A stretch of DNA of 55,519 bases. It comes from Opitutia bacterium (lineage in GTDB: Bacteria > Verrucomicrobiota > Verrucomicrobiia > Opitutales > T3Sed10-336). The position numbers and the translations under genes are program-made. Below, piece after piece: positions 34,418 to 48,700 of the stretch (within the stretch, counting starts at the first letter, position 1; the number at the start of each line of letters is the position of its first letter). Below the pieces are notes generated by a model that searched no databases, was not told the origin of the DNA, and saw only the letters and a list, made by a program, of their open reading frames with translations. The stretch covers positions 1 through 55,519 of the forward strand of contig JBJHCF010000035.1 of NCBI GenBank assembly GCA_050506795.1. Reading direction: 5' to 3'.

Positions 34418-35959
34418 ATGAAAAGGCGCGATAGGGTCAAGGCATTGAATCCCGCTGGATCGAAATTCATCCGCCGCGCCTCCCCGGCGATGGTGGCTGC
34501 GGCAGTGCTGGGGTTGACACCGCTTATTGCCGCGGGCGATGAAATCGAGGTGACCGTGCATCCGGAAGACGCCTTTCAGGTCCATGAGGGATTCGGTACC
34601 TCGCTCGCGTGGTGGGGGAACGTGATTGGCGGGTGGCCGGAAGAGAAGCGCGAGCATATCGCCGATCTGGTGTTCGATCCGGAGAAGGGCCTCGGCTTCA
34701 ACATTGTCCGGTACAACATCGGCGGGGGCGACAACCCCGAGTTGGAGCCCTATTTGCGTCCGGGCGGCGATGTCCCCGGGTTTCAGCCGGAGCCGGGGGT
34801 TTGGGATTGGAGTGCGGACGAGAACCAGCGGTGGGTTCTGATGGCCGCCCGGGAGCGGGCCGGCGATGAGTTTCTGGCGGAGGCGTTTTCCAATTCGCCG
34901 CCGTATTGGATGAACCACACCAACGACGTGCACGGCAACCAAGGCGAGGATAATCTCAAGCCGGAATACTACGATGCATTTGCCGAATACCTCACCGAGG
35001 TCGTCCAACATTTTCGCGACGAATACGATTTGGTCTTTCGCACCCTGGCGCCGTTCAACGAACCCGAACTGGCCTGGGGAAGTCCCAGTCACCGCGGGCA
35101 GGAAGGCTGCCATTTTCGGGTGGCCACCCAGGAGATCATTATTGAAAAGGTCTATGACGAACTGAGGGAGCGCGAATTGGAAACCGTGATCAGCGCCATG
35201 GACGGCGCGCATTACTGGAACACCATGCGCCAGTACAACGAGTACGGCGAGGCGACCCGTTCCCGCGTCGCCCAGATCAATTCCCACGGCTACGAAGTGA
35301 ATCCCGGCGCCATGCGCGAACTGCGCAACCTCGCGGCACGGGAAGGCAAACGACTGTGGATGTCGGAACTCGACGGCGGGGGCGGACGCAGTTCCTGGGG
35401 GTCTTTCGCTCACGATCCCGAGGACATGGTGCCGGCATTAAACCTTTCGCGCCAGGTCTACCGCACCCTGAAGGATTTGCGCCCGGCGGCGTGGATTTTC
35501 TGGCAGGCGGTGGAGAACTGGGCGCACAACATCAACTCCAATCACAACTGGGGCCTGATTCACGCGAACTTCGAGGAAGAAGGCGCGCAGGGGCTGGGTG
35601 AGTTCGACTACACGACGAACAAGAAGTTTTACGTCATGGGTCAGTACTCGAAGTTCATCCGCCCAGGCGACAGACAGATTCGCATCGATCAGGACCGGGC
35701 GGTGGCGTTTATTAATCGCAACGGCGACAGGCTGGTGATCGTGCAGACCAATGAGGAGGAGGAACCGTTCGATTTCCAATACGACCTGTCGCGGTTTGCC
35801 TCGATTGAGGGTCCGGTGGAAGCCTACCGGACATCCGCGTCGGAAAACCTGGAGCGACTGGAACCGATGGAAGTGTCGTCCGAGGGACACCTCGACACCA
35901 CGGCGCCGGCGCGATCGGTCACGACCTTTTTAATCCCGATAACCCTTTCCGAATCGTGA
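34418..35959 (+). CDS. GH30 glycoside hydrolase (endo-beta-1,6-galactanase-like)
   Basis: GTSLAWW, RYNIGGG, AFSNSPPYWM, acid/base PFNEP, nucleophile LWMSE; hydrophobic signal segment; start uncertain. Confidence 0.85.
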   Translation: MKRRDRVKALNPAGSKFIRRASPAMVAAAVLGLTPLIAAGDEIEVTVHPEDAFQVHEGFGTSLAWWGNVIGGWPEEKREHIADLVFDPEKGLGFNIVRYNIGGGDNPELEPYLRPGGDVPGFQPEPGVWDWSADENQRWVLMAARERAGDEFLAEAFSNSPPYWMNHTNDVHGNQGEDNLKPEYYDAFAEYLTEVVQHFRDEYDLVFRTLAPFNEPELAWGSPSHRGQEGCHFRVATQEIIIEKVYDELRERELETVISAMDGAHYWNTMRQYNEYGEATRSRVAQINSHGYEVNPGAMRELRNLAAREGKRLWMSELDGGGGRSSWGSFAHDPEDMVPALNLSRQVYRTLKDLRPAAWIFWQAVENWAHNINSNHNWGLIHANFEEEGAQGLGEFDYTTNKKFYVMGQYSKFIRPGDRQIRIDQDRAVAFINRNGDRLVIVQTNEEEEPFDFQYDLSRFASIEGPVEAYRTSASENLERLEPMEVSSEGHLDTTAPARSVTTFLIPITLSES

Positions 35960-36270
35960 GTGCGGCGCCGGAAGACGAACCCGCCGAAGACGAGCCGGTG
36001 GAGATTCCCATCACCGACGAACTGGATCTGCACACCTTCCAGCCCCGCGAGGTCAAGGACCTGGTTCCCTACTACCTGGAGGAATGTCGCGACCGCGGCA
36101 TTCACACCGTTCGGGTGATCCACGGCAAAGGCAGCGGCACGCTGCGGGAAACGGTGCATTCGCTCCTGCGAAAACTCGACTTCGTCCGCGATTTCCACCT
36201 CGCCGACGAAGCCTCCGGCGGCTGGGGCGCCACCCGCGTCCACCTCAAGCCGAAAGACCCAACAAAGTAG
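35956..36270 (+). CDS. Stand-alone Smr domain protein
   Basis: ELDLH, VIHGKGSG.LR, GGWGATRV. Confidence 0.92.
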   Translation: MSAAPEDEPAEDEPVEIPITDELDLHTFQPREVKDLVPYYLEECRDRGIHTVRVIHGKGSGTLRETVHSLLRKLDFVRDFHLADEASGGWGATRVHLKPKDPTK

Positions 36271-36399
36271 GTCTATAGGCGCTCCGCCGCCTTCTCAGCG
36301 CCGCCGCGCAACTTCTGGCAACGCTGGACGCCTCTCAGTTAGGATCACAACTGACGATGCTGAGTGGAAGGACTTGAACTTTTCTTGTGATTGAGAACT

Positions 36400-36430
36400 T
36401 ACAGATAGCAAATATGGTTTGCTATCTGTA
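36400..36430. promoter_or_regulatory. Perfect 13-bp inverted repeat (operator or hairpin)
   Basis: TACAGATAGCAAA-TATGG-TTTGCTATCTGTA, 39 nt upstream of the ORF at 36470. Confidence 0.5.
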
Positions 36431-36469
36431 GGAAAAGGCGACATCGGGTTTATTTAAACGAGAGGGAGT

Positions 36470-37342
36470 ATGCTCATGAAGAAACTGTATGTTGGATTAG
36501 GAATGTATCCGCAGTTAAGTAAAATAGTGTTTATTTATTCGGTGTGTTTGGCTGTCCCTTGCATCACTGTGTTTGCGAATTCGATTGCTAAGTTGGGAGA
36601 AGTCAGCCTCGCCGGGAATCAGTATCCGATCCTTGCGGTATCTGGAAAGGATTTTGCGGACAAAAATGAGTTTTTTGAAAAGCTTTTCGATGACATAAAT
36701 AGAATTTCTAACGCCAATCGCTATTATTTTCAACGGTATGATGAGGAGTTTATTGGTCGTGTTGGCGATAGAGACGAGGATCTTAGACAGGCAATTTTTC
36801 CTTGGTATGATCGGGTGATTCAAGGGGGATTTCAGCGATCTAATATTTGGGGAGCTCTTCGACTCAGCGGGGGATGGGGGATGATGCTCGAAGTATATGT
36901 GATTGATAAAAAAGTTACGTTTCTTGTTCCGCCGGAAACAGTGGATTATTCCCTAAAAGAGAACTGGGAAGTATATCGGAAATACGAAAGTGAGTTTTTG
37001 GAATTGCGCGCCAGTTTGATTCGGTTGAATGATAGTATTCGATGGGGGACTCATGTTGATGTTGCCCAATCTCTCCGTGATTTGTGTAAAAGCGATTCCA
37101 TGTTTGAAGGTCTCATGGACCTCTGGGGAAGATCGGAACGTTGCGCAGAGGTACTATTTGAAGACTTCTTAGCCGAGCATGCGTACGTTCGGCACCCAGG
37201 CGAGGACGGTCACATTACAGTTGGGGCAATGCTACAGTGGCGATATTGTGATGATAGTAGGGATAATAGAATGCTAGAGGCTATTATGGTGTATGATGAA
37301 GGGTGGAGTTTTTTGAGTGTTAGGCACCCGGAGGATTACTGA
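36470..37342 (+). CDS. Low-GC hypothetical protein, possible orphan immunity protein
   Basis: 290-aa ORF with GAGGGAG RBS, visibly AT-richer than flanking genes, hydrophobic N-terminal segment; no family recognised. Confidence 0.6.
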   Translation: MLMKKLYVGLGMYPQLSKIVFIYSVCLAVPCITVFANSIAKLGEVSLAGNQYPILAVSGKDFADKNEFFEKLFDDINRISNANRYYFQRYDEEFIGRVGDRDEDLRQAIFPWYDRVIQGGFQRSNIWGALRLSGGWGMMLEVYVIDKKVTFLVPPETVDYSLKENWEVYRKYESEFLELRASLIRLNDSIRWGTHVDVAQSLRDLCKSDSMFEGLMDLWGRSERCAEVLFEDFLAEHAYVRHPGEDGHITVGAMLQWRYCDDSRDNRMLEAIMVYDEGWSFLSVRHPEDY

Positions 37343-37414
37343 CATGAGTAACGTGAGGTGGTCCGTAAGCGTCCGCTCGGCGTCCCCCTGTGAAGGGATG
37401 CCGAGTTCGGGGAA

Positions 37415-37647
37415 GACGCAAAGGGATCAGTCCGTTGTTTGTTGACTTTTGTCTTGCGTGAAGAAAAGCGATAGCCAGTTTGATCTGCATGGCAAGGAAG
37501 CTGCGGATTCAGTATCCTGGAGCGATGTATCACATCATTAATCGCGGGAACTACCGAAAAGACCTGTTCGAGAGCGTGGGCGCGGCGGAGGCTTTCTTGA
37601 TGGTGCTAGGTGAAGCCGTTCCGAGGTTTGGCTGGAAGCTGCATGCG
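37415..37647 (+). pseudogene. Truncated third copy of the Y1 HUH transposase element (degenerate left end + first 53 codons)
   Basis: Left end GACGCAAAGGGATCAGTCCGTTGTTTGTTGA; ATG 37489 MARKLRIQYPGAMYH...GWKLHA; similarity stops at 37647, just before another left end. Confidence 0.9.
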
Positions 37648-37651
37648 AGGG

Positions 37652-37748
37652 AGGCAAAAGGGGTCAGGCCGTTGTTTGTTGATTTCCGGCTTGCGTGTAG
37701 GGAGGAGGGAACAAACAACGTCAGGTCTGTACACTTGACTGAACCCCT
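37652..37748 (+). mobile_element. Miniature non-coding derivative of the element
   Basis: Full 31-bp left end 37652-37682; internal inverted AACAAACAACG (37710-37720); degenerate right end CTGAACCCCT (37739-37748). Confidence 0.55.
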
Positions 37749-37866
37749 CTCACGACGGGTTACTGCTCGCCACTTTGCATGACGGCTAATGACAACTCCA
37801 TCTTGTGGAGAGTCAAAAGCTGACGTTTTCCCGGTCGCTCACGCTCTCGCCCAAAAGAAAAGAGGG

Positions 37867-38900
37867 AGGCAAAAGGGGTCAGGCCGTTGTTTGTTGACTT
37901 TTGTCTTGCGTGAGGAAGCCCAATAGCCAGATTGAGCTGCATGGCAAGGAAGCTGCGAATTCAGTATCCCGGAGCGATGTATCACATCATCAATCGCGGG
38001 AACTATCGAAAAGATCTATTTGAGAGCGTGGGCGCGGCGGAGGCTTTCTTGAGGGTGCTGGGCGAAGCCGTTCCGAGGTTTGGCTGGAAGCTGCATGCGT
38101 ACGTGCTGATGAGAAATCATTATCATCTGGCGTTGGAGACGCCGACACCGACCCTGGTACAGGGGATGCACTGGCTGCAAAGCACCCTGGCCACCCGCTT
38201 CAACAGGTACCGGCGCGAGAGCGGTCACCTTTTTCAGGGGCGCTATAAGTCGATTTTAATCGAGGATCCGGCTGCATTGAGCCGGGTGGTTGATTACATT
38301 CACCTCAATCCGGTGCGAGCAGAGGTTGTGTCAGCCGAGCAGGTGGGTAACTACCGATGGAGCAGCCTGGCGCGTTTTTTGAAGGGAGGTCGGCTGCCGG
38401 GGTTGACGGCGGCCGATTGGTTGGCCGCCGGTGGAGGTTGGCGGGATGATGCGCTGGGATGGAAGGCTTATACGGAACGATTGGTGGAACTTGGCCGAGA
38501 TGAAGCACGCTGGAAGATGGCGGGTCTGGAGGGGCTTTCCCGGAGTTGGGCGATTGGTAGTTCCGGCTGGCGAAGGAAGCTTGCGCGGGAGTATGCTCAG
38601 CGTGTGCTGGAGCCGGGTTTGGAGCGGGAAGAGGTGCGCGAGTTGCGCGAGAGTGCTTGGAGTCTCTGCCTGGAGGAAGAATTGGCGGCGTTGGGAAAAA
38701 CGAAGACGGATTTGAACTGTCGTCCGCGAAAACAGGCATGGAAGCTGGACCTGGCGCAACGTATCCGGGACAAGAGCGCCGCGCCCTACCGCTGGCTTGC
38801 GGAGGCCCTGGATATTGGTCGGCCCGAATCTCTTCGCAGTTACCTTTGCCGTCACAGAGGGATTAAGGATCAACGAACAACGGCCTGACCCCTTTTGCCT
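37867..38900 (+). mobile_element. 1034-bp element: Y1 HUH transposase gene between 31-bp terminal inverted repeats (copy 1)
   Basis: Left AGGCAAAAGGGGTCAGGCCGTTGTTTGTTGA (37867-37897); right TCAACGAACAACGGCCTGACCCCTTTTGCCT (38870-38900); 30/31 complementary; no target duplication seen. Confidence 0.9.
37941..38888 (+). CDS. Y1 HUH transposase (REP-associated tyrosine transposase / IS200-like), copy 1
   Basis: YHIINRGN, AYVLMRNHYHL (HUH), GHLFQGRYKS, catalytic YIHLNPVRA; 315 aa with C-terminal extension; stop codon inside the right IR. Confidence 0.92.
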   Translation: MARKLRIQYPGAMYHIINRGNYRKDLFESVGAAEAFLRVLGEAVPRFGWKLHAYVLMRNHYHLALETPTPTLVQGMHWLQSTLATRFNRYRRESGHLFQGRYKSILIEDPAALSRVVDYIHLNPVRAEVVSAEQVGNYRWSSLARFLKGGRLPGLTAADWLAAGGGWRDDALGWKAYTERLVELGRDEARWKMAGLEGLSRSWAIGSSGWRRKLAREYAQRVLEPGLEREEVRELRESAWSLCLEEELAALGKTKTDLNCRPRKQAWKLDLAQRIRDKSAAPYRWLAEALDIGRPESLRSYLCRHRGIKDQRTTA

Positions 38901-41330
38901 TCTAACAGCGACAGCACCCCGTCGGTAACGTACCAACTGAACCGCCTCGGGCAGGTCGAGGAGGTCTCCGACGGTTCCGGGACGCGCGAATTGAAATATA
39001 CGGACCGTGGCAAGCTGAATGGGGAGGAGTACGTATCGGGTCCTCTCGCCGGAAGAGGGGTTGAACACACTTATCATCCCGATATCGACCGTTTGACTTC
39101 TATCAAGGTTGTCGACGGGACAACTGTGCTCCACACCCAAAGCTACGGTTATCACATGACGAATAACCGCCTGGAAACTGTTTCAGAAGGAAATTTCAGT
39201 ATTGATTATTGGTACGGGGGCCAAACGTATCGTGTAGTTCGCAAAAGTTTTCAACGAGGCTCAACGTTTGTCGAGGAATCCGGGAGGCATCTCGATCGAC
39301 TGAATCGTTACATTCACAGCTATCTTGGGCCGGATTGGCTGACATCCAACGCTCCCCTTTTGCACGAGTATGACTATAATGCGGCGAATCAACGGGTCGG
39401 AATCGAACGGCAGGGAGTTGACGAGCCGATCTGGCGGTGGGACTACGTGTACGACTCGCTCGGTCAGGTGACTTCGGCCCAGCGCCACTGGGGAGAGCTC
39501 GGCGGAACCTCCGATCCGGTTCAGGGCCAGCAGTACACGTACCTCTTTGACGATATTGGCAACCGCACACAAACCACAACGAACGGCGAGACAGTAAATT
39601 ACACGCTTGCGACCGGTTCCTCCGCCGGACTCAACCAGTATGCTGAGCGCGACGTGCCGGACGTGATTGACGTGCTCGGTTTTTCATTGTACCCTGCAGG
39701 TCAATCCACTTTAGAGGTGAATGGCGTGACCGCAGACCATCGAAAGCAATCTTACTTTTACCACCAGCTCGGTAACCTGGGGAATTCGAGCAGCGACCTG
39801 TTCGAGGAGGTCGAGGTTATCGAATACTATCTCGGTAATCCAGTCGCGGAGGACAGCGGGTACTATTTTGTCGCCGAAGACCCGGAGGTGTTCGATTATG
39901 ACGACGATGGGAACCTCCTCTCTGACGGGAGGTGGGAATATAGGTGGGATGCGGAGAACAGGCTTATTGAAGTGGAGGAAATCAGAACGGCGGAGATTCA
40001 GCAGGTCAGACGTAGAAAACTCACGATAATCTACGACGACCAGGGGCGCAAGGTGCGTACTCAGCAGGTTCTGTGGCATCCCGGCAGGCAAGTGTGGGGA
40101 AATTCCACCAACCGTCATTATGTCTACAGCGGATTCAATATTATTGGTGAGGGCTACGTGAATCCGAATAGTAGCGGAAATTGGAACATCGAAACTACGT
40201 ACCTATGGGGCCTCGACGAAGTAGAAATGAATGACTACCGCGTGACTAACAACTGGAGTTCAATAGGCCACTCTTCCGGCGGGGTTGGGGGGTTGCTTCT
40301 GATCAGCGATCACGACCTGAATGAAGCCCATTTCGTACACAGTGATGGAAACGGAAGCGTTGTTGCCCTCATCGATGCCGATGGAAACGGGGAAATTTCT
40401 GCGATGTACGACTATGATCCCTTCGGGAACCTCATCCGTGCCAGCGGCGAAGCCGCCGAACTGAACCCGTTCCGCTTCAGCACGAAGTACCACCACGAGT
40501 TCTATGGATTGTCCTATTACGGCTTTCGGTTTTACAGCCCCGGACAAGGGCGGTTCCTAAACAGGGATCCGATCGGGGAACGTGGTGGGTTGAATTTGTA
40601 CGCGTTTGTGGGGAACGATCCGGTGAATCGGTGGGATTGGTTGGGATTATCGAGCAGTGCTTTTACTCCAGATCGATGGGTGAAGATCCAATGGTTTCCT
40701 GGAATCGAGAAGGCGCTTCGATTGGACCTTCAAATAAAGGAGCGGCATGCAGGGAGTCAGCGATGGAATCGGATTGGACGCCAAAGACTTGCAGCGGCAC
40801 GAGGCCAAGGGATCACTGGTGGCCTAAGAGGGGCGGGGCATATCGGCGTTCAGGCTGCAGTAACATTGGTTTATAACCGGATACAGAGCCGTCTTAGCGA
40901 ACGTATGGAATCTGTCGGCTATTGTCATAGGATCAATCTGCACTATTCCGCTTTCCGCCATCAAGACGCAGGCCAGCTTCCTCTTGGTGCATCTGATATT
41001 CCCGGAAGTCCTTACGGTGAACAGTGGGTGAGTTTTGGACGTTCGTTCACATTGCCGGAAGAGTTCGGGGGTAGAGTGGATGGACGAAATATTGATATCC
41101 TTGGCAGAGGAGAGGTGGAAGCTACGCCTAAGTTACATTACAGGATTTGTAGTGACAATCCGTGTCAATTTGAAAGTTGGTATTGGCGACCTTTGGGTAG
41201 CGTGGATGAATTTTTTGAAGCAATGACAAGTGAGGGTAACGTTGAGGATCTTTGGGATAAGGTGTATGTCCATAGCTGTGACGCTGCATCGAAATCCAAT
41301 GAGTTTTGTGCCAATGTTGGATGCAAATAG
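38895..41330 (+). CDS. 5'-truncated (orphan) Rhs/YD-repeat core with variable C-terminal putative toxin domain
   Basis: YD repeats (YVYDSLGQVT, FDDIGNRT, YDDDGNLLSDG); core YDYDPFG..NPFRFSTKY..YYGFRFYSP..GRFLNRDPIGERGGLNLY.FVGNDPVNRWDWLGL; then 226 unique residues. The only start is a TTG inside the element IR. Confidence 0.9.
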   Translation: MPSNSDSTPSVTYQLNRLGQVEEVSDGSGTRELKYTDRGKLNGEEYVSGPLAGRGVEHTYHPDIDRLTSIKVVDGTTVLHTQSYGYHMTNNRLETVSEGNFSIDYWYGGQTYRVVRKSFQRGSTFVEESGRHLDRLNRYIHSYLGPDWLTSNAPLLHEYDYNAANQRVGIERQGVDEPIWRWDYVYDSLGQVTSAQRHWGELGGTSDPVQGQQYTYLFDDIGNRTQTTTNGETVNYTLATGSSAGLNQYAERDVPDVIDVLGFSLYPAGQSTLEVNGVTADHRKQSYFYHQLGNLGNSSSDLFEEVEVIEYYLGNPVAEDSGYYFVAEDPEVFDYDDDGNLLSDGRWEYRWDAENRLIEVEEIRTAEIQQVRRRKLTIIYDDQGRKVRTQQVLWHPGRQVWGNSTNRHYVYSGFNIIGEGYVNPNSSGNWNIETTYLWGLDEVEMNDYRVTNNWSSIGHSSGGVGGLLLISDHDLNEAHFVHSDGNGSVVALIDADGNGEISAMYDYDPFGNLIRASGEAAELNPFRFSTKYHHEFYGLSYYGFRFYSPGQGRFLNRDPIGERGGLNLYAFVGNDPVNRWDWLGLSSSAFTPDRWVKIQWFPGIEKALRLDLQIKERHAGSQRWNRIGRQRLAAARGQGITGGLRGAGHIGVQAAVTLVYNRIQSRLSERMESVGYCHRINLHYSAFRHQDAGQLPLGASDIPGSPYGEQWVSFGRSFTLPEEFGGRVDGRNIDILGRGEVEATPKLHYRICSDNPCQFESWYWRPLGSVDEFFEAMTSEGNVEDLWDKVYVHSCDAASKSNEFCANVGCK

Positions 41331-41376
41331 AGCGCTGTCGTCCTGAGTGGTACATAAGTATTATATATAGTCGAAT

Positions 41377-42204
41377 ATGAGTACCTTGAATGCGAAATTG
41401 AAAGAAATTCTTCCTGCATTGTCGTTTATAATCGGGACTTCAGCTGTTTTGTTTTTAGGTGGTCTTGGCGCTGAAGGCATGATGAGAGGAGAAGACGAAG
41501 CGAAAGATATTTGGACAGTTCGCCACGAACGGTATTTATCCGAGGGTGCTCAAGCGGCAATTACACAGAGGTATTGGGATATTCAACGTCTTATAGAGAA
41601 AAAGAAATTCGGAAACGCCTTGGCGCTTTTGGCAAAGCATGAAGAAGAATTTCCGGGACATTGGAGTGTTTGGGCTCTCGCATTGAATACCTACAAAAAG
41701 ATGGGCGATTCAGATAACGCAAAAAAAGCGGCTTTGGCACTGATGACGAGTTCATATACCGCCGATGGCCTGAACTCGTTGCGCTTTATCGAACCGGCTT
41801 TATTCTTTCACGAAGAGGGGGATACCGAGTTTGCTGTGGAGATTCTAAGGTTCGGATGGAGTTACCTGGATAGAGTCGGAGAGTCCGATTGGACGTTGCT
41901 GGACCTCGAAGTCCGTATATTGCTTGAGTCCGGAAATTCAACGAACGCGCTGCGTCGCGTGAAAACGATTTCTGATGGATATCCAATCCGACCGGGCGGT
42001 GTGCATGATGTGAAAATCCGGCTTTTACGGCGACTTGCCGAGGAGGAGGGAAGGGAGGAATATCTTGAACGCGCCCGAGAGATCGAACGTGTAATAAGCG
42101 AATATGAAGAGGAAGATCGAAGGCTTAGGGAGGAATTTCGAGACTCATGGATGCGATCTGCTGAAGAAGTTGAGAGGACGCGGATGGAGGAAAGCGAAAA
42201 TTGA
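41377..42204 (+). CDS. Putative cognate immunity protein (signal/TM segment + TPR-like helices)
   Basis: Directly downstream of the Rhs C-terminus, same strand, lower GC; N-terminal hydrophobic segment; helical repeats. Confidence 0.65.
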   Translation: MSTLNAKLKEILPALSFIIGTSAVLFLGGLGAEGMMRGEDEAKDIWTVRHERYLSEGAQAAITQRYWDIQRLIEKKKFGNALALLAKHEEEFPGHWSVWALALNTYKKMGDSDNAKKAALALMTSSYTADGLNSLRFIEPALFFHEEGDTEFAVEILRFGWSYLDRVGESDWTLLDLEVRILLESGNSTNALRRVKTISDGYPIRPGGVHDVKIRLLRRLAEEEGREEYLERAREIERVISEYEEEDRRLREEFRDSWMRSAEEVERTRMEESEN

Positions 42205-42263
42205 CGTAACTAAACAAATGTTGCCGGTCAACTTCTCATGGTAAGGACAAATCGAAATAGGGT

Positions 42264-42279
42264 AGGCAAAAGGGGTCAG
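42264..42279 (+). repeat. Isolated outer half of the element end
   Basis: AGGCAAAAGGGGTCAG, 16/16 identical to the first 16 nt of the left IR, then unrelated sequence. Confidence 0.85.
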
Positions 42280-42323
42280 TAAATGTCCGGACAACCACCC
42301 TCTATACATGCCCGCCCTATCGG

Positions 42324-42426
42324 GGTATGATCCGAGGACATTGGTAACACTTTATCTGAGGACATCGGTTACACATTCTGACGGCAATTATGCCGTGGAA
42401 AACGACCGAACCGATGACCGAAAAAG
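42324..42426 (+). mobile_element. Remnant left end of an IS481-family element
   Basis: Two tandem 24-bp units (ATCCGAGGACATTGGTAACACTTT / ATCTGAGGACATCGGTTACACATT, 20/24), then ATG 42390 MPWKTTEPMTEK, a typical IS481 transposase start, cut after ~12 codons. Confidence 0.7.
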
Positions 42427-42755
42427 GACCAGGAACGGGTCAGGCTTAAGCGCTTAAGTATTCCACTTCCTGAATACCCCCCTTTTTTCCTCGACCCAAC
42501 GGGAACCAGCCCGCTCTTGGTTCCAATCGGCAACCCCCCCCTCGGGTCTCTCGGCGGGCCGGGATTGCCCTTGAAAGCTTGCCGGGCTTTTCCCGCGTCC
42601 GCGGGATGCTTCTGACGTCGTACCTTTCCCGACTGTTCGGATTTCCGGGGTTTGTCGATCTGTCTTTACCCGGTTGTATCACGTACCTGTTAACGCGGGC
42701 ATCCTGCCCGCCATGAATTCGTGTATTTCGCGTAGTTCGTGGTCAAAACTCCCGG

Positions 42756-42800
42756 AAAAAATCTCACGCCCACTCCCTTCGGGCGGAACCGGGCGTGAGA
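42756..42800 (-). terminator. Probable intrinsic terminator for minus-strand transcription (second copy at ~45269-45315)
   Basis: Stem TCTCACGCCC / GGGCGTGAGA next to an A6 tract (U tract on the minus strand); loop is long (19 nt). Confidence 0.4.
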
Positions 42801-42857
42801 ATTGAACCGATATTCGCCCAATTCAATTTTTGATAGTAAGCCGTTGCGGGAAAGGGG

Positions 42858-42883
42858 TTCGCCGGCTGAAGCCTGGCGCTACA
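42858..42883 (-). repeat. GTAG-type REP sequence
   Basis: Minus strand GTAG-CGCCAGGCT-TC-AGCCGGCG; identical at 55419-55444, one mismatch at 45373-45398. Confidence 0.7.
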
Positions 42884-43124
42884 TAGAGCCTAATACGCGA
42901 ACGCTGGTCGGCCTTCCTGTTCTCCGGTCTGTGGGTTGTGGTGGAACCGTTCTCTTCGGAACCGTTTCCCGAAGATAACTTGACATCCCCTGCGCCAGTA
43001 ATGCATTAATAATGTCAGGATGCATCGCCGATGCCGACGCGTGATGATAGCCGGCTTCATTGCGGCAATGAAATCGTTTTGATCCTTCGGGTGATGTGGG
43101 TCGGTATTTTTATACGTTAGACTA

Positions 43125-43232
43125 ATGAAGCCTCTGTCCGCTGTTTTGCTCTTGTTTATCCTGGTCGGAGGCGCCGGTGTTCTGTGGTTGATGTGGGATC
43201 CAGGGAAACCCCTGGCCGCGACCGAGGCGGGC
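43125..43232 (+). pseudogene. First 36 codons of a second copy of the DUF1549/1553 gene, cut by the element's left end
   Basis: MKPLSAVLLLFILVGGAGVLWLMWDPGKPLAATEAG versus MKPLSAALLLFILLGGAGVLWLMWDPGKPMAANEAG at 45640. Confidence 0.9.
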
Positions 43233-43236
43233 GGAA

Positions 43237-44270
43237 GGGCAAAAGGGGTCAGGCCGTTGTTTGTTGACGTTTGTCTTGCGTGAGGAAGACCAATAGCCAG
43301 TTTGAGCTGCATGGCAAGGAAGCTGCGAATTCAGTATCCCGGAGCGATGTATCACATCATTAATCGCGGGAACTACCGAAAAGATCTATTTGAGAGCGTG
43401 GGCGCAGCGGAGGCTTTCTTGAGGGTGCTGGGTGAAGCCGTTCCAAGGTTTGGCTGGAAGCTGCATGCGTACGTGCTGATGAGGAATCATTATCATCTGG
43501 CGTTGGAGACGCCGTCGCCGACCCTGGTACAGGGTATGCACTGGCTACAAAGCACCCTGGCCACCCGCTTCAATAGGTACCGGCGCGAGAGCGGTCACCT
43601 TTTCCAGGGGCGCTATAAGTCGATTTTAATCGAGGATCCGGCTGCATTGAGCCGGGTGGTTGATTACATTCACCTCAATCCGGTGCGAGCAGAGGTTGTG
43701 TCAGCCGAGCAGGTGGGCAACTACCGATGGAGCAGCCTGGCGCGTTTTTTGAAGGGAGGTCGGCTGCCGGGGTTGACGGCGGCCGATTGGTTGGCCGCCG
43801 GTGGAGGTTGGCGGGATGATGCGCTGGGATGGAAGGCTTATACGGAACGATTGGTGGAACTTGGCCGAGATGAAGCACGCTGGAAGATGGCGGGTCTGGA
43901 GGGGCTTTCCCGGGGTTGGGCGATTGGTAGTTCCGGCTGGCGAAGGAAGCTTGCGCAGGAGTATGCTCAACGTGTGCTGGAGCCGGGTTTGGAGCGGGGA
44001 GAGGTGCACGAGTTGCGCGAGAGTGCTTGGGGTCTCTGCCTGGAGGAAGAATTGGCGGCGTTGGGAAAAACGAAGACGGATTTGAACTGTCGTCCGCGAA
44101 AGCAGGCATGGAAGCTGGACCTGGCGCAACGTATCCGGGACAAGAGCGCCGCGCCCTACCGCTGGCTTGCGGAGGCCCTGGATATTGGAAGGCCCGAATC
44201 TCTTCGCAGTTACCTTTGCCGTCACAGAGGGATTAAGGATCAACGAACAACGGCCTGACCCCTTCTGCCT
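43237..44270 (+). mobile_element. 1034-bp Y1 HUH element with terminal inverted repeats (copy 2)
   Basis: Left end 43237-43267, right end 44240-44270 (28/31 complementary); same length as copy 1; no target duplication seen. Confidence 0.9.
43311..44258 (+). CDS. Y1 HUH transposase, copy 2
   Basis: Same motifs as copy 1; about 22 nt and 6 aa differences by manual comparison. Confidence 0.92.
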   Translation: MARKLRIQYPGAMYHIINRGNYRKDLFESVGAAEAFLRVLGEAVPRFGWKLHAYVLMRNHYHLALETPSPTLVQGMHWLQSTLATRFNRYRRESGHLFQGRYKSILIEDPAALSRVVDYIHLNPVRAEVVSAEQVGNYRWSSLARFLKGGRLPGLTAADWLAAGGGWRDDALGWKAYTERLVELGRDEARWKMAGLEGLSRGWAIGSSGWRRKLAQEYAQRVLEPGLERGEVHELRESAWGLCLEEELAALGKTKTDLNCRPRKQAWKLDLAQRIRDKSAAPYRWLAEALDIGRPESLRSYLCRHRGIKDQRTTA

Positions 44271-44376
44271 TCTACGCGTAAACTGACCGAAAAGATTGAA
44301 CGTTCCAAAGATTACTGATCAAGAGGCGGTTGCAATTTGGGACAGGTACTATTCTATGGGAACGGGTGGCTATCTG

Positions 44377-44766
44377 ATGAATAGGGCTCTTATAGTTTTT
44401 GGAATAGTATCCATTGTGGCGTTGTTAGCTCTTGCTGTGGTAAGCCTGCCGTCTTCAGTGAGAGAGAGTGCTTGGAAACAAGGGGCAGGTATTCATGTTC
44501 AGCCTGGAAAACCGGTCGTTTCACCCTCGGGAACTTATCTCCTTAGCATGATTTGTTCCGACGAGTTAAGCGCTCTGGGTAAGTGCCACTTTTTGATAAG
44601 AAGGCTTCCCCATGGCTCATTAGAGGAAATGTTTCCAGTTATAGAGTTTGGCCTAGAGAAGGATTTTGAGCTGTTTTGGACTGATGACGATGTCGTGATT
44701 ATGCATTACAGAGGAGGACTCCTTCAATGGGAGAAACTGCATGACGTATGGAACCTCCAACAGTAG
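44377..44766 (+). CDS. Low-GC hypothetical membrane-anchored protein, possible orphan immunity protein
   Basis: ATG 44377 MNRALIVFGIVSIVALLALAVV (TM segment); frame open from 44296; SPSG.Y and FWTDDD beta-strand motifs. Confidence 0.55.
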   Translation: MNRALIVFGIVSIVALLALAVVSLPSSVRESAWKQGAGIHVQPGKPVVSPSGTYLLSMICSDELSALGKCHFLIRRLPHGSLEEMFPVIEFGLEKDFELFWTDDDVVIMHYRGGLLQWEKLHDVWNLQQ

Positions 44767-44802
44767 GGACGTCGGAAAGACGTCAGGTAACTCTTTACGA
44801 TA

Positions 44803-44910
44803 TTCCACCCTTTTCGCCCTTTTTGCGGAGCGGCTTGCCGGAGCATTGGGAAGATTGCCAGGACTGGGGGCATTTTGTTTGCCCACGAAAGGCACGAAAC
44901 ACACGAAAAG
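44803..44910 (+). repeat. Three adjacent blocks of degenerate 9-nt periodic repeats
   Basis: TTCCACCCT TTTCGCCCT TTTTGCGG; CCGGAGCAT TGGGAAGAT TGCCAGGAC TGGGGGCAT; CACGAAAGG CACGAAACA CACGAAAAG. Confidence 0.6.
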
Positions 44911-44940
44911 GAGATGGAGAAACAGCCATCGCTGAAAGGA

Positions 44941-45747
44941 GACCAGGAACGGGTCAGGCTTAAGCGCTTAAGTGTTCCACTTCCTGAATACACCCCCTTT
45001 TTTCCTCGACCCAACGGGAACCGGCCCGCTCTTGGTTCCAATCGGCAGCCCCCCCTCGGGGTCTCTCGGCGGGCCGGGATTGCCCTTGAAAGCTTGCCGG
45101 GCTTTTCCCGCGTCCGCGGGATGCTTCTGACGTCGTACCTTTCCCGACTGTTGGGATTTCCGGGGTTTGTCGATCTGTCTTTACCCGGTTGTATCACGTA
45201 CCTGTTAACGCGGGCATCCTGCCCGCCATGAATTCGTGCATTTCGCGTAGTTCGTGGTCAAAACTCCCAAAAAAATCTCACGTCCACCCGCTTTAGGGCG
45301 GAACCGGGCGTGAGAATTGAACCGATATTCGCCCAATTCAATTTTTGATTGTAAGCCGTTGCGGGAAAGGGGTTCGCCGGCTGAAACCTGGCGCTACATA
45401 GAGCCTAATACGCCAACGCTGGTCGGCCTTCCGGTTCTCCGGTCTTTGGGTTGTAATGGAACCGTTCTCTTCGGAGCCGTTTCCCTAAGATAACTTGACA
45501 TCCCCTGTGCCAGTAATGCATTAATTGATATCAGGATGCATCGCCGATGCCGAGGCGTGATGATAGCCGGCTTCATGCGGCAGTGAAATCGTTTTGATCC
45601 TTCGGGTGATGTTGATTGGTACTTTTATACATTAGACTGATGAAGCCTCTGTCCGCTGCTTTGCTCTTGTTTATCCTGCTCGGAGGCGCCGGTGTTCTGT
45701 GGTTGATGTGGGATCCAGGGAAACCCATGGCCGCGAACGAGGCGGGC
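44941..45747 (+). repeat. 807-bp direct repeat, copy B (upstream region and 5' end of the intact DUF1549/1553 gene)
   Basis: Aligns with 42427-43232. Confidence 0.95.
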
Positions 45748-48700
45748 CAATGGGCCGAGTCAGCCGAGGGTTCTTACGAGCTCCCGCAGATGATTTCCTT
45801 CAATCATCACGTTCAGCCGGTTCTGTCCGCGAACTGTTACGCCTGTCACGGTCCCGACGCCAACACCCGCGAGGCGAATCTTCGCCTGGACCGGCGGGAG
45901 TACGCATTGACTCCGTCCGAGAGCGGATCGCCCGCGATAGACGAGAACAACCTCGATGCGAGCCCGATTCTCGAACGCCTCCTTTCCGACGATCCGACCA
46001 AGGTGATGCCCCCTCCGGGAGCGCACTCGCAGCTCGAGCCCGACGAGAGGGCGCTGCTGGTTCGTTGGGTCAGGGAAGGAGCGGTTTACGAGGAGCATTG
46101 GGCCCTGATTCCACCGGAAAAAGCCGAACCACCCGAGTTGGAGAACGATACCTGGTCGAGAAGCGTCATCGATGAATTCGTTCTCGACCGCCTGCGGCGT
46201 GAAGGTCTCGAACCGAATGCCCCGGAAGAGCCCCGCACGCTCATCCGTCGCGTAACGCTCGACCTGACGGGACTGCTGCCGGATCCGGCGGATGCCGATT
46301 TGTTCGCGGAGAACCCCTCGGACGAGGCCTACGAAGCCTATGTCGACAAACTCCTCGCTTCACCTGAATACGGAGAACATCGGGCTCGTTACTGGCTCGA
46401 CTACGCCCGCTACGCCGACACCCATGGTCTGCATTTCGACAACAGACGTTCGATCTGGCCCTACCGTGATTACGTAATACGCGCCTTCAATGAGAACAAG
46501 CCCTTCGACACATTTGTGCACGAACAAATCGCGGGAGACCTTCTGCCGTCGGTCACGCTTGATTCACTCATCGCGACGGGCTACATCCGGAGCAATGTTT
46601 CGACCAACGAGGGCGGCGCCATCACGGAAGAAGTGGCCATCAACAACGTGCGGGATCGCACCGAGGCGTTTGGGAGCACGTTCCTCGGTCTGACGGTGGG
46701 TTGCGCCTCTTGTCACGATCACAAATTCGATCCGACCACGGCGAAAGATTATTACCAGCTTTCCGCCTTTTTCACCAATCTTGAGGAAAAGGGGTGGGAT
46801 GAAAATATCCCGGATCCGCCGCCGACCCTGCGCATTCCTCCCGAGGACAGTAAGGCGCGGGCCGAGGAGCTCCTGGAGGAGATGGGCCGCGTCAGGAACG
46901 AACTCGAAACGCGCCGCCGGCAGGCTCCGGACCTTCTCGAAGCGGCCATTGCCGACGGCAATGGCCCCCGGTCAGTTTCCGTCGAAGGCATGGAGCTTCG
47001 TCTCCGTCTGGACGAAGGATCGGGCGACCGCGTCCGCAACTCCGCGCCGGGCGCGGAGGATGAGACCTTTGTCGCCCACACGAATCCGCTGATCTGGGGC
47101 GAACAGTCGTGGCACTGGCCCGGCATGCGAATGGACATGAATTCGCGACTGCCCCTCGGGAACCATGGTGACTTTGAAGGCAGCGATTCTTTTTCCATGG
47201 GCGGCTGGTTTATGCTGCGCCAGAAACCGGCGAACATCCGGACTCCCAATGGCGCCCTTCTCGCACGGATGGGCGGGGCGGATCGCGACGGACACCGGGG
47301 GTGGGATCTCTGGAGCGAGAATAACCGGTTTGCCGCTCATCTCATTCACCGTTGGCCGGATCACGCGATTAAGGTTATCACCAAAGATGCGTTTCCGGAT
47401 CATGAGTGGATTCATGTTTTTGTTACTTATGACGGATCGCACAATGCGGAAAACCTGCGCATCCATGTGAACGGCCGGATCGTGGAAACGGAAATCGCCA
47501 ACAATACCCTGGAGCCGGGCTTGACGACTCGCACCGACTCTCAAATCCACCTCGGCCGGCGCGACGACGAGAGTCCCAAGCGCGAGACGCGTTATCAGGA
47601 CATCCGCATCTACCGGCGCGCCCTGGCGCCCGAGGAGGTCGCTCGCCTTCCATTCGAAGATTACGCGGCCGAGATCGTTGCGGAAAAGCCCGAACCGGCT
47701 GCCTGGAGCACGGATGAACGCTTTGTCGTGATTGACCGTTTCTTCACGGAGTCCGACGAGCAAGCCGCCGCCCTGCGAAGCGAGTTGAACGCGTTGGAGG
47801 TTGCCTTTGAGGAATTGACGCGGGAAGGGACGCCGACGCTCATTGCGAGGGAGAAGGAGAGTCCCGCCTATGCGCACATTCTCGACCGCGGCCTTTACAG
47901 CGCGATCACCGAACGGGTGGAGCCTGGCACGCCGGAATTTCTCCCTCCGATTCCTGAAGGCCAACGGGCGGACCGTTTGGCTTTGGCCGAATGGACAACC
48001 TCTCCGGAGAATCCGCTTCTCGCTCGGGTGACGGTGAACCGTATGTGGCAGGAAATTTTTGGACAGGGCATCGTCCGGACGCCTGATGATTTCGGCATCG
48101 TGGGCGAACGGCCCTCTCACCCGGAATTGCTCGACTGGCTTGCGGTTGAATTTCTTGAAAGCGGCTGGGATGTCAAGAACCTCTACCGCCACCTCGTGCT
48201 TTCGTCCACCTATCGCCAATCTTCGAGGATAACACCGGAAGCCCTCGAGAAGGACCCTTTCAACCACGCTCTTTCCCGCGCGCCCCGTTTCCGCATGGAT
48301 GCGGAGATGATTCGAGACACCGCGCTGCAATCCTCCGGCCTGCTCGTGCAAAAGCTGGGCGGACCTCCGGTCAAGCCGTATCAGCCGGAGGGAATCTGGG
48401 AGGCCGTATCCATGCCGGAGTCGGATACAAAAACCTACGAGCAGGGATCGGGAGACGATCTCTACCGCCGAAGCCTGTACACCTTCTGGAAACGATTCGC
48501 TCCTCCGGCCAGTCTGGAAACCTTCGACGCGCCGGCGCGCGAAGTGGTTTGCAGCGAGCGTGCCCGCACCAATACGCCGCTTCAAGCGCTCACCACCATG
48601 AACGATCCCCAATTCATCGAAGCTTCCCGCATTCTGGCGGAGCGGGCCGTACGGGGGGCGGAAACCTCCGAAGAAAGACTCAACACACTCTCCCGACTGA

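Follow-up and report, generated by a model that had tools for sequence, protein, structure and literature searches.

TIRtrons beside Rhs loci and the possible one-ended origin of a truncated Rhs module in an Opitutia bacterium

Introduction

How does a truncated Rhs toxin gene come to lie among repeated transposase ends? The question is raised by a stretch of 55,519 nucleotides from an Opitutia bacterium (GenBank assembly GCA_050506795.1, contig JBJHCF010000035.1), hereafter the window. Short repeats, Y1/HUH transposase genes, a truncated Rhs gene and duplicated host sequence are found there within about 9 kb (36335 to 45747). A first-pass annotation proposed an HUH enzyme that captures or shuffles Rhs toxin/immunity cassettes and builds an integron-like array. 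By their sequence and arrangement, the repeats are the ends of a 1,042-bp TIRtron, a previously described class of element in which a Y1/HUH transposase gene lies between terminal inverted repeats (TIRs). We suggest, with a probability of roughly 55%, that the locus was built by a TIRtron whose transposase acts one end at a time. The pattern of TIRtron-Rhs junctions suggests that the element helps to make spare toxin-tip cassettes. The element class is already known; what is apparently new is the signature of one-ended junctions, together with the polarised association with Rhs loci.

The repeats are the ends of a TIRtron

The locus contains two full TIRtron copies and several fragments (Table 1). 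The first copy has terminal arms of 31 nt that are 97% complementary, and the second arm pair spans 30 nt at 93%, so that a transposase gene is flanked by terminal inverted repeats as in described TIRtrons. No target duplication was found around either full copy. The encoded protein of 315 amino acids (aa) matches Y1_Tnp (PF01797) in a Pfam search, and residues H60, H62 and Y119 are unchanged across all 24 aligned homologues. Its predicted structure (pLDDT 89.4) has TnpA-REP 4er8 as the top fold match, which agrees with the HUH Y1 enzyme named in the first-pass annotation. The model has three C-terminal helices at residues 266-314, and no Bac_DnaA_C, HTH_23 or HTH_28-like Pfam match was found in the protein at E 0.01.

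Seven copies of an end motif had been reported from the window, and all seven hold. Six are matches to a 16-mer at three mismatches or fewer, against 0.48 expected from shuffles. Four of these are exact (37652, 37867, 38885-38900 on the minus strand, and 42264) and two have one mismatch (43237, and 44255-44270 on the minus strand). The seventh, at 37415, is too degenerate for the 16-mer search, scores 27.6 with the end matrix and is backed by an arm (37420-37647, 228 nt) about 92% identical to both full elements. The motif GGGGTCAG is present at all four ends of the full copies and fits the GGGGWSAS consensus of TIRtron/TIRYT elements. Paired ends of full homologues, 97 ends in total, gave the consensus aaaGGGGTCAGgcc, with ACGTCA and GTGTCA as variants. 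Eighty metagenome loci, mostly too short for neighbourhood counts, served this end definition. The reported motif is a real repeat, with AGGCAAAA as only the local form of a 10-12-nt outer segment; family-wide, the motif is aaaGGGGTCAG followed by a family-specific inner arm. No hairpins were found at the element ends, where folding is no better than in shuffles (z 0.5 to 1.6).

A RAYT-like Y1 gene within terminal inverted repeats, a long protein with a predicted helical C-terminal extension and the lack of REP hairpins are shared with the TIRtron/TIRYT class. In Di Nocera et al. 2013 (PMC3733652), this class is defined by a RAYT-like Y1 gene, flanking terminal inverted repeats and the GGGGWSAS consensus, and the element fits it. 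It can be tentatively equated with TnpA-Y1 subclass 2.1, which according to Quentin et al. 2018 (PMC6006769) is found in 14.9% of strains and is among the largest TnpA-Y1 groups. The available text of Bertels 2017 describes Group 1 as the most insertion sequence (IS)-like group of RAYTs. A REPtron or RAYT-REP identity was rejected, with no flanking REP hairpins and an NF047646 score of 66.4 bits at a cut-off of 80. An IS200/IS605 identity was likewise set aside given the protein length of 315 aa, ends without hairpins and no IS200 NCBIfam match for the window protein. In a protein search, homologues were present in 131 of 401 genomes of the phylum. As a separate observation, each of 16 genomes of one genus (g72) carries one distant homologue (about 35%), at similar positions in several complete genomes, which may represent a domesticated lineage.

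Arbitrary DNA abuts element ends at a nearly constant distance

The first-pass annotation placed breakpoints at 37647, in a transposase copy, and at 43232, in a host-gene copy. Homology ends at both positions, and both of these clean left-end breaks leave an outer segment of exactly 12 nt. We extended this comparison to junctions where an intact version of the DNA beyond the end is present elsewhere. With a search span of 1-40 nt outside the motif, homology of the foreign DNA ends 6-17 nt outside GGGGTCAG in 24 of 26 such mappable junctions, and at 11-13 nt in 12 of them. No target consensus was visible by eye in 20 junction targets. The proposal that the enzyme's ends are joined to arbitrary DNA is thus supported. 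The joined DNA is often sequence that normally lies on the element's far side. Near-perfect tandem duplications covering an end-like motif have units of 27-147 nt, and 16 of the 18 found share just 4-19 nt outside the end; the remaining two sit within longer repeats. Junction distances and duplications together indicate a nearly fixed start and a variable other side. An identity profile outside paired ends rises from 0.44 at -12 to 0.70 at -9 (117 pairs, with 140 inside larger duplications dropped), which is loosely supportive at most since the profile took in non-end repeats as well. The mapped junctions show each predicted end to reach about 10-12 nt past GGGGTCAG, with its outer boundary joined to unrelated DNA at arbitrary positions. 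This signature of a near-fixed outer boundary, arbitrary partner DNA and neither target duplication nor target motif appears to be new.

The window also contains a duplication of about 806 bp, at 94.5% identity, that had escaped the first-pass annotation. Its two segments, D1 and D2, both start with an end from a second TIR family, which was likewise missed earlier and recurs on contigs C39, C43 and C69. Since D1 and D2 surround the second TIRtron copy (E2), the order reads as a first unit of E1, Rhs fragment, small gene, half end, IS481-like fragment and D1, followed by E2, an orphan gene, D2 and the host gene.

Such repeats could be an assembly artefact of a metagenome-assembled genome in 82 contigs. 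We consider this very improbable. The copies of the element differ by 2.5% and those of the duplicated segment by 5.5%. In one public sequencing run, contigs at a depth of 12-15 span 35000-37548, 38865-40559 (from the right end into Rhs), 40538-42456, 44237-44898 and 45697-47000. Part of the element has a depth of 22, and the duplicated segment occurs in both of its variants. A misassembly had been named beforehand as a refutation; most junctions are bridged at single-copy depth by the sole run that holds the stretch, which may be the assembly's own source. The junction at 43232 was absent among the best 8 of 64 pieces. The same architecture is found in other genomes, one of them a single contig.

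Two further duplications can be mentioned on their own. At locus L063 (G298:C1:723153-725763), two identical truncated copies of 252 codons stand in tandem before a full copy, another duplication with a fixed start and a variable end. At L199, on a metagenome contig, a homologue is surrounded by four or more repeats of a unit of about 2.4 kb.

Enrichment and predominant co-orientation of homologues at Rhs loci

Neighbourhoods were counted in 39 genomes of the same order that carry a homologue. These hold 95 Rhs cores and 82 homologue matches, of which 73 carried coordinates. Two IS families in the same genomes, rve_3 (n=123) and IS66 (n=46), served as controls. A lack of Rhs association among homologues had been named beforehand as a refuting test, and an association was found. 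Nineteen of the 73 homologues have an Rhs core at a distance of 5 kb or less, compared with 10 of 169 control IS (6 of 123 and 4 of 46), and uniform placement predicts 0.39 homologues (Fisher p 4e-5, with p-values overstated because related genomes are not independent). The Rhs-adjacent homologues come from 15 of 33 Rhs-bearing genomes and 13 genera. By a hand count from the match lists, 18 of these 19 are co-oriented with the Rhs gene compared with 3 of the 10 control IS. On a homologue tree of 58 rows, made with a quick version of the search, they are scattered, with 14 label changes of which at least 11 are forced. From the Rhs side, the 95 cores fall into 79 loci. Of the 89 cores recovered by profile, 46 have a transposase sequence or an end-like motif within 5 kb: a gene or gene fragment in 30 cases and a motif in 39. 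Three of seven Rhs loci in the window's own genome adjoin a homologue.

The link is also found in a second phylum. Burkholderiales gave 122 matches in 77 genomes. Thirty Rhs-bearing genomes account for 57 of these, and 7 of the 57 have Rhs within 5 kb (expectation 0.48), in five genomes and all co-oriented. Examples from other Verrucomicrobiota classes, taken from the best 150 of 253 Rhs matches, are co-oriented at two loci (L259, L260) and opposite at one (L261). An Rhs match was present in 6 of the first 47 homologue loci. With a single-protein query, the classes of G434 (5 of 91) and G435 (10 of 401) gave few matches, and plasmids gave four distant partial ones. The TIRtron-Rhs link is reproducible and polarised, and apparently undescribed. 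An Rhs-core fragment was also noted immediately upstream of a co-oriented homologue in a 1.2-Mb genome (G435:C20:65-1031).

Some truncated Rhs modules begin at element ends

The window module consists of a truncated Rhs core with a variable tip, followed by a small co-oriented gene, as in orphan Rhs tip/immunity modules. The Rhs gene had been read as beginning inside the repeat at 38901. It does abut the right end; the fragment itself begins at 38905, because 38901-38904 are common to the right end of the second element. From its residue 3, it aligns with the last third of a 2,296-aa Rhs protein on contig C55. A homologue search with the tip returned the tip alone, and a search with the following 275-aa gene likewise returned itself alone, with a weak TPR match below the cut-off. 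The toxin and immunity roles of the window genes are putative and are assigned by position.

Ends at module boundaries, which the first-pass annotation expected elsewhere, were found in other genomes. Locus L089 has a full Rhs gene, a gap roomy enough for an immunity gene, the element and a truncated Rhs gene. This truncated gene copies 986 bp of the upstream full-gene core at 97%, and the copy ends 12 nt from the right-end motif. At L095 and L096, truncated Rhs genes begin at a right end. The single contig of genome G1141 has a full Rhs gene, then the element, then three truncated modules. The first of these repeats 2,860 bp at 99.3%, beginning 9 nt from a right end. At the far side of the array, the element and about 790 bp of flank are duplicated (1,574 bp, 100%), and the first copy is cut by a new left end. 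This flank duplication is the same bracket as D1 and D2 in the window. A module downstream of a homologous full-length Rhs gene is found in L089 and L249. In the window, L095 and L096, the right end contains a TGA that the Rhs frame follows, and in L089 this is not so. An in-frame transposase-Rhs fusion was set aside as probably due to chance.

Modules bracketed by ends might be taken for a true integron-like system, in which the transposase recombines end with end and moves toxin/immunity cassettes that have an end on either side. The window module is bracketed by a perfect 16-bp inverted pair and a module on contig C62 by ends of different families, ends lie between array modules in L096, L099 and L249-L250, and half ends with replaced inner arms recur. 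We regard such a system as improbable. The breakpoints in Rhs genes are arbitrary and differ between modules, many modules in the same arrays have no end at their start, and an identical end-bounded cassette in two contexts was not found. The long Rhs-core homology common to the modules points to homologous recombination instead. The integron-like array of the first-pass annotation is therefore not supported in the strict sense: no paired recombination sites were found, and one junction partner is arbitrary DNA. Integrons do share variable-gene arrays beside a recombining enzyme with the present loci, which differ in having neither a tyrosine recombinase nor hairpin att-like sites, in their arbitrary breakpoints and in the long homology between modules. 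A Pfam scan of the region's open reading frames (ORFs) found no integrase.

Proposed one-ended action and the insertion-sink alternative

HUH enzymes nick and rejoin single strands via a phosphotyrosine. In a one-ended reaction, the TIRtron transposase would nick one strand at the outer boundary of an end and remain attached via Y119. The strand running through the element would then close onto a later, arbitrary 3'-OH. The product might be a circle, or a tandem duplication on the sister chromosome, holding the element and its flank. Homologous recombination via shared flank, Rhs core or element could install this product. A start at the left end would yield junctions of a broken transposase or a host gene with a left end, as well as the duplication of E1-cargo-D1 and E2-cargo-D2. 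Where an element lies downstream of an Rhs-immunity pair, a start at its right end would join that end to a truncated Rhs gene. The resulting order of full Rhs, immunity gene, element, truncated Rhs and immunity gene would amount to C-terminal displacement, and the window's Rhs module might be a stranded cassette. A circle and a one-ended transfer between sister chromosomes would leave the same products and are indistinguishable from sequence.

Rhs loci could alternatively be tolerant, often transferred sinks for mobile DNA. TIRtrons would insert there two-ended and then trim their neighbours by adjacent deletion, an established activity of IS ends. Orphan modules would pre-exist through homologous recombination alone (Jackson 2009), and ends would abut them where a deletion stopped. 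We rate this account as possible and clearly less probable than one-ended action. Many of the results that fit such a sink also weigh against the one-ended Rhs reading, in addition to the non-independence of genomes and the junction search span given above. No Rhs core lies within 5 kb of 54 of the 73 homologues. The neighbours of 32 non-Rhs homologue loci are varied ordinary genes (131 of 132 extracted ORFs scanned; one a second transposase copy). Control IS are enriched at Rhs loci too (10 of 169); the controls comprise two families, with none in Burkholderiales. Orientation is opposite at L103, L261 and in one copy on C62. A detected end lies within 300 nt of the start in 6 of 40 truncated Rhs ORFs, with four facing outward and three abutting; the other 34 have no detected end near the start with a matrix that misses some end families. 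Arrays L253 and L254 of genome G973 gave no transposase match and no detected ends. The window module has no full-length Rhs partner nearby, and the genome's other Rhs proteins are at most 35-60% identical and on other contigs. IS66 and IS481-like fragments are also heaped in the same stretch of the window.

A sink alone accounts for trimmed genes, not for duplicated flanks. Deletion alone cannot duplicate the element together with its downstream flank, as in the window (D1/D2) and G1141, nor can it yield tandem duplications beginning at an end boundary. The roughly four-fold enrichment over controls, the strong co-orientation and the absence of target duplications around both full copies also speak against it. 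We therefore favour one-ended action. The proposed Rhs capture and shuffling system stands insofar as homologues are enriched beside Rhs genes beyond two IS controls. It does not stand as a system dedicated to Rhs. On balance, we lean towards the TIRtron as a general rearranger with a marked Rhs hotspot and as one of several routes to orphan modules. A more far-reaching possibility, which we regard as tentative and on the doubtful side, is that the circle-making enzyme still missing from the picture of Rhs C-terminal displacement is, in several phyla, a TIRYT transposase. Selection would have kept these transposases just downstream of Rhs-immunity pairs. Working from one end, they would capture the tip and immunity gene in a Y1 read-through reaction not described before, acting on double-stranded-type inverted ends rather than hairpins, and would thereby seed and extend toxin arrays.

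Relation to known systems

IS91/ISCR rolling-circle capture and IS26 translocatable units likewise combine one fixed and one variable end, carry flanking DNA, re-enter by homology and leave a partial flank duplication. ISCR/IS91 enzymes are of the Y2 type with distinct ori and ter ends, and IS26 encodes a DDE enzyme. The present element differs in its Y1 enzyme and in two similar inverted ends that both apparently can start. A loose precedent at Rhs loci are the H-repeat IS elements associated with E. coli rhs.

Rhs C-terminal displacement (Jackson et al. 2009, PMC2935791; Kirchberger et al. 2017, PMC5361080) resembles the present loci in having an intact gene followed by truncated core-plus-tip modules. 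The model invokes a circle that integrates by a single homologous crossover. What sets the present loci apart is the presence, at the junction, of a transposase gene with its ends. Jackson 2009 knew of no integrase beside Rhs and left the first origin of orphan toxin modules open. The available text of Kirchberger 2017 invokes homology-facilitated illegitimate recombination and reports no integrase. The available text of Zhang 2012 contains no mention of HUH or IS200, and a preprint (bioRxiv 2024.07.17.603846) treats RAYT and Rhs separately. The names "tirtron" and "tiryt" were found in literature text only in PMC3733652 and PMC6006769. The available text of these two papers contains no Rhs, cut position, one-ended junctions or flank capture, and the activity was untested there. 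No paper linking TIRtron/TIRYT to Rhs was found in a search whose coverage ended short of subscription papers and supplements. The earlier impression of an unknown arrangement thus holds for the Rhs link, and not for the element class. The junctions predict a cut position and a one-ended mechanism for TIRYTs, which are open to direct assay. A transposase at Rhs junctions in two phyla makes the origin of orphan modules a testable question. As a small HUH enzyme that would attach arbitrary DNA to a short, defined end, the transposase could also find use as a tool.

Other features of the locus

Table 1. Features of the locus, with positions in the window.
Feature	Coordinates	Strand	Remark
Orphan gene O1, 290 aa, GC 0.44, hydrophobic N-terminus	36470..37342	+	Immunity-like by position only
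Fragment of IS66 element start, cut by TIR end	37363..37410	+	90% match to C14:68171-68123
Degenerate left end, then codons 1-53 of a transposase copy that breaks off at 37647	37411..37647	+	
Left end abutting the broken transposase copy at 12 nt beyond GGGG	37648..37683	+	
Inverted pair of ACGTCAG-type end-like motifs	37717..37827	.	Possible miniature element of another TIR family
TIRtron copy 1 (E1), full, 1,042 bp	37863..38904	+	315-aa Y1/HUH transposase gene (37941-38888) between left and right ends
5'-truncated Rhs gene with YD repeats, core and C-terminal tip	38905..41330	+	TIGR03696 above cut-off
Gene after Rhs tip, 275 aa, GC 0.475	41377..42204	+	Putative immunity gene by position
Half end: outer segment and GGGGTCAG, inner arm replaced	42260..42279	+	Similar half ends in L095, L096
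5' fragment of IS481-like transposase region, cut by second-family end	42324..42416	+	75% over 93 nt to start of 411-aa ORF, L108
Segment D1: second-family TIR end (motif 42436) to first codons of host DUF1553 gene, cut at 43232	42427..43232	+	
TIRtron copy 2 (E2), full, 1,042 bp	43233..44274	+	97.5% identity to copy 1
Orphan gene O3, 129 aa from ATG, GC 0.46, hydrophobic N-terminus	44377..44766	+	
Segment D2: second-family end (motif 44950) at start, copy continuing into intact host DUF1553 gene	44941..45747	+	

An empty site was sought in relatives, where matches to DUF1553, GH30 and the transposase are lacking within about 1.5 kb of nine related Smr loci. The left flank of the window has no match in two genomes of the same genus. 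Neither orphan gene matches a family in Pfam or NCBIfam. Searches gave one unnamed relative for each, at 54% for O1, which has no atlas match at 0.9 or above, and at 69% for O3. The sequence matched by the IS66 fragment sits upstream of an IS66 transposase (C14:66025-66870), and the match ends 12-16 nt outside the motif. The 411-aa ORF in L108 has IS481 as its top NCBIfam match, slightly under the cut-off.

The first-pass annotation had also missed motifs that resemble ends of other families, at 37717, 37827 (minus) and 44779. The ACGTCAG type also flanks full homologues in L087 and L102, with related sequence on contig C2. The arrays L253 and L254 contain dense, very short Rhs core-plus-tip ORFs (about 76-250 aa), which might reflect a different route to arrays. 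Seven IS481-like starts listed in the window's own genome (including C14, C53, C76 and C5) have frames of just 19-111 aa and no long ORF. A CACGAAA-type short repeat, at 44866-44914 in the window and on C14, C76, C18, C23 and C47, often follows right after a truncated IS481-like start, with which it forms a recurrent mosaic module. Window positions 44976-45055, within the duplicated segment, resemble C18:3404-3482, C18:4664-4739 and C29:65718-65796. Those sequences on C18 and C29 lie directly downstream of two other Rhs-immunity pairs without an adjoining TIRYT gene and are possibly another end-like repeat of Rhs loci.

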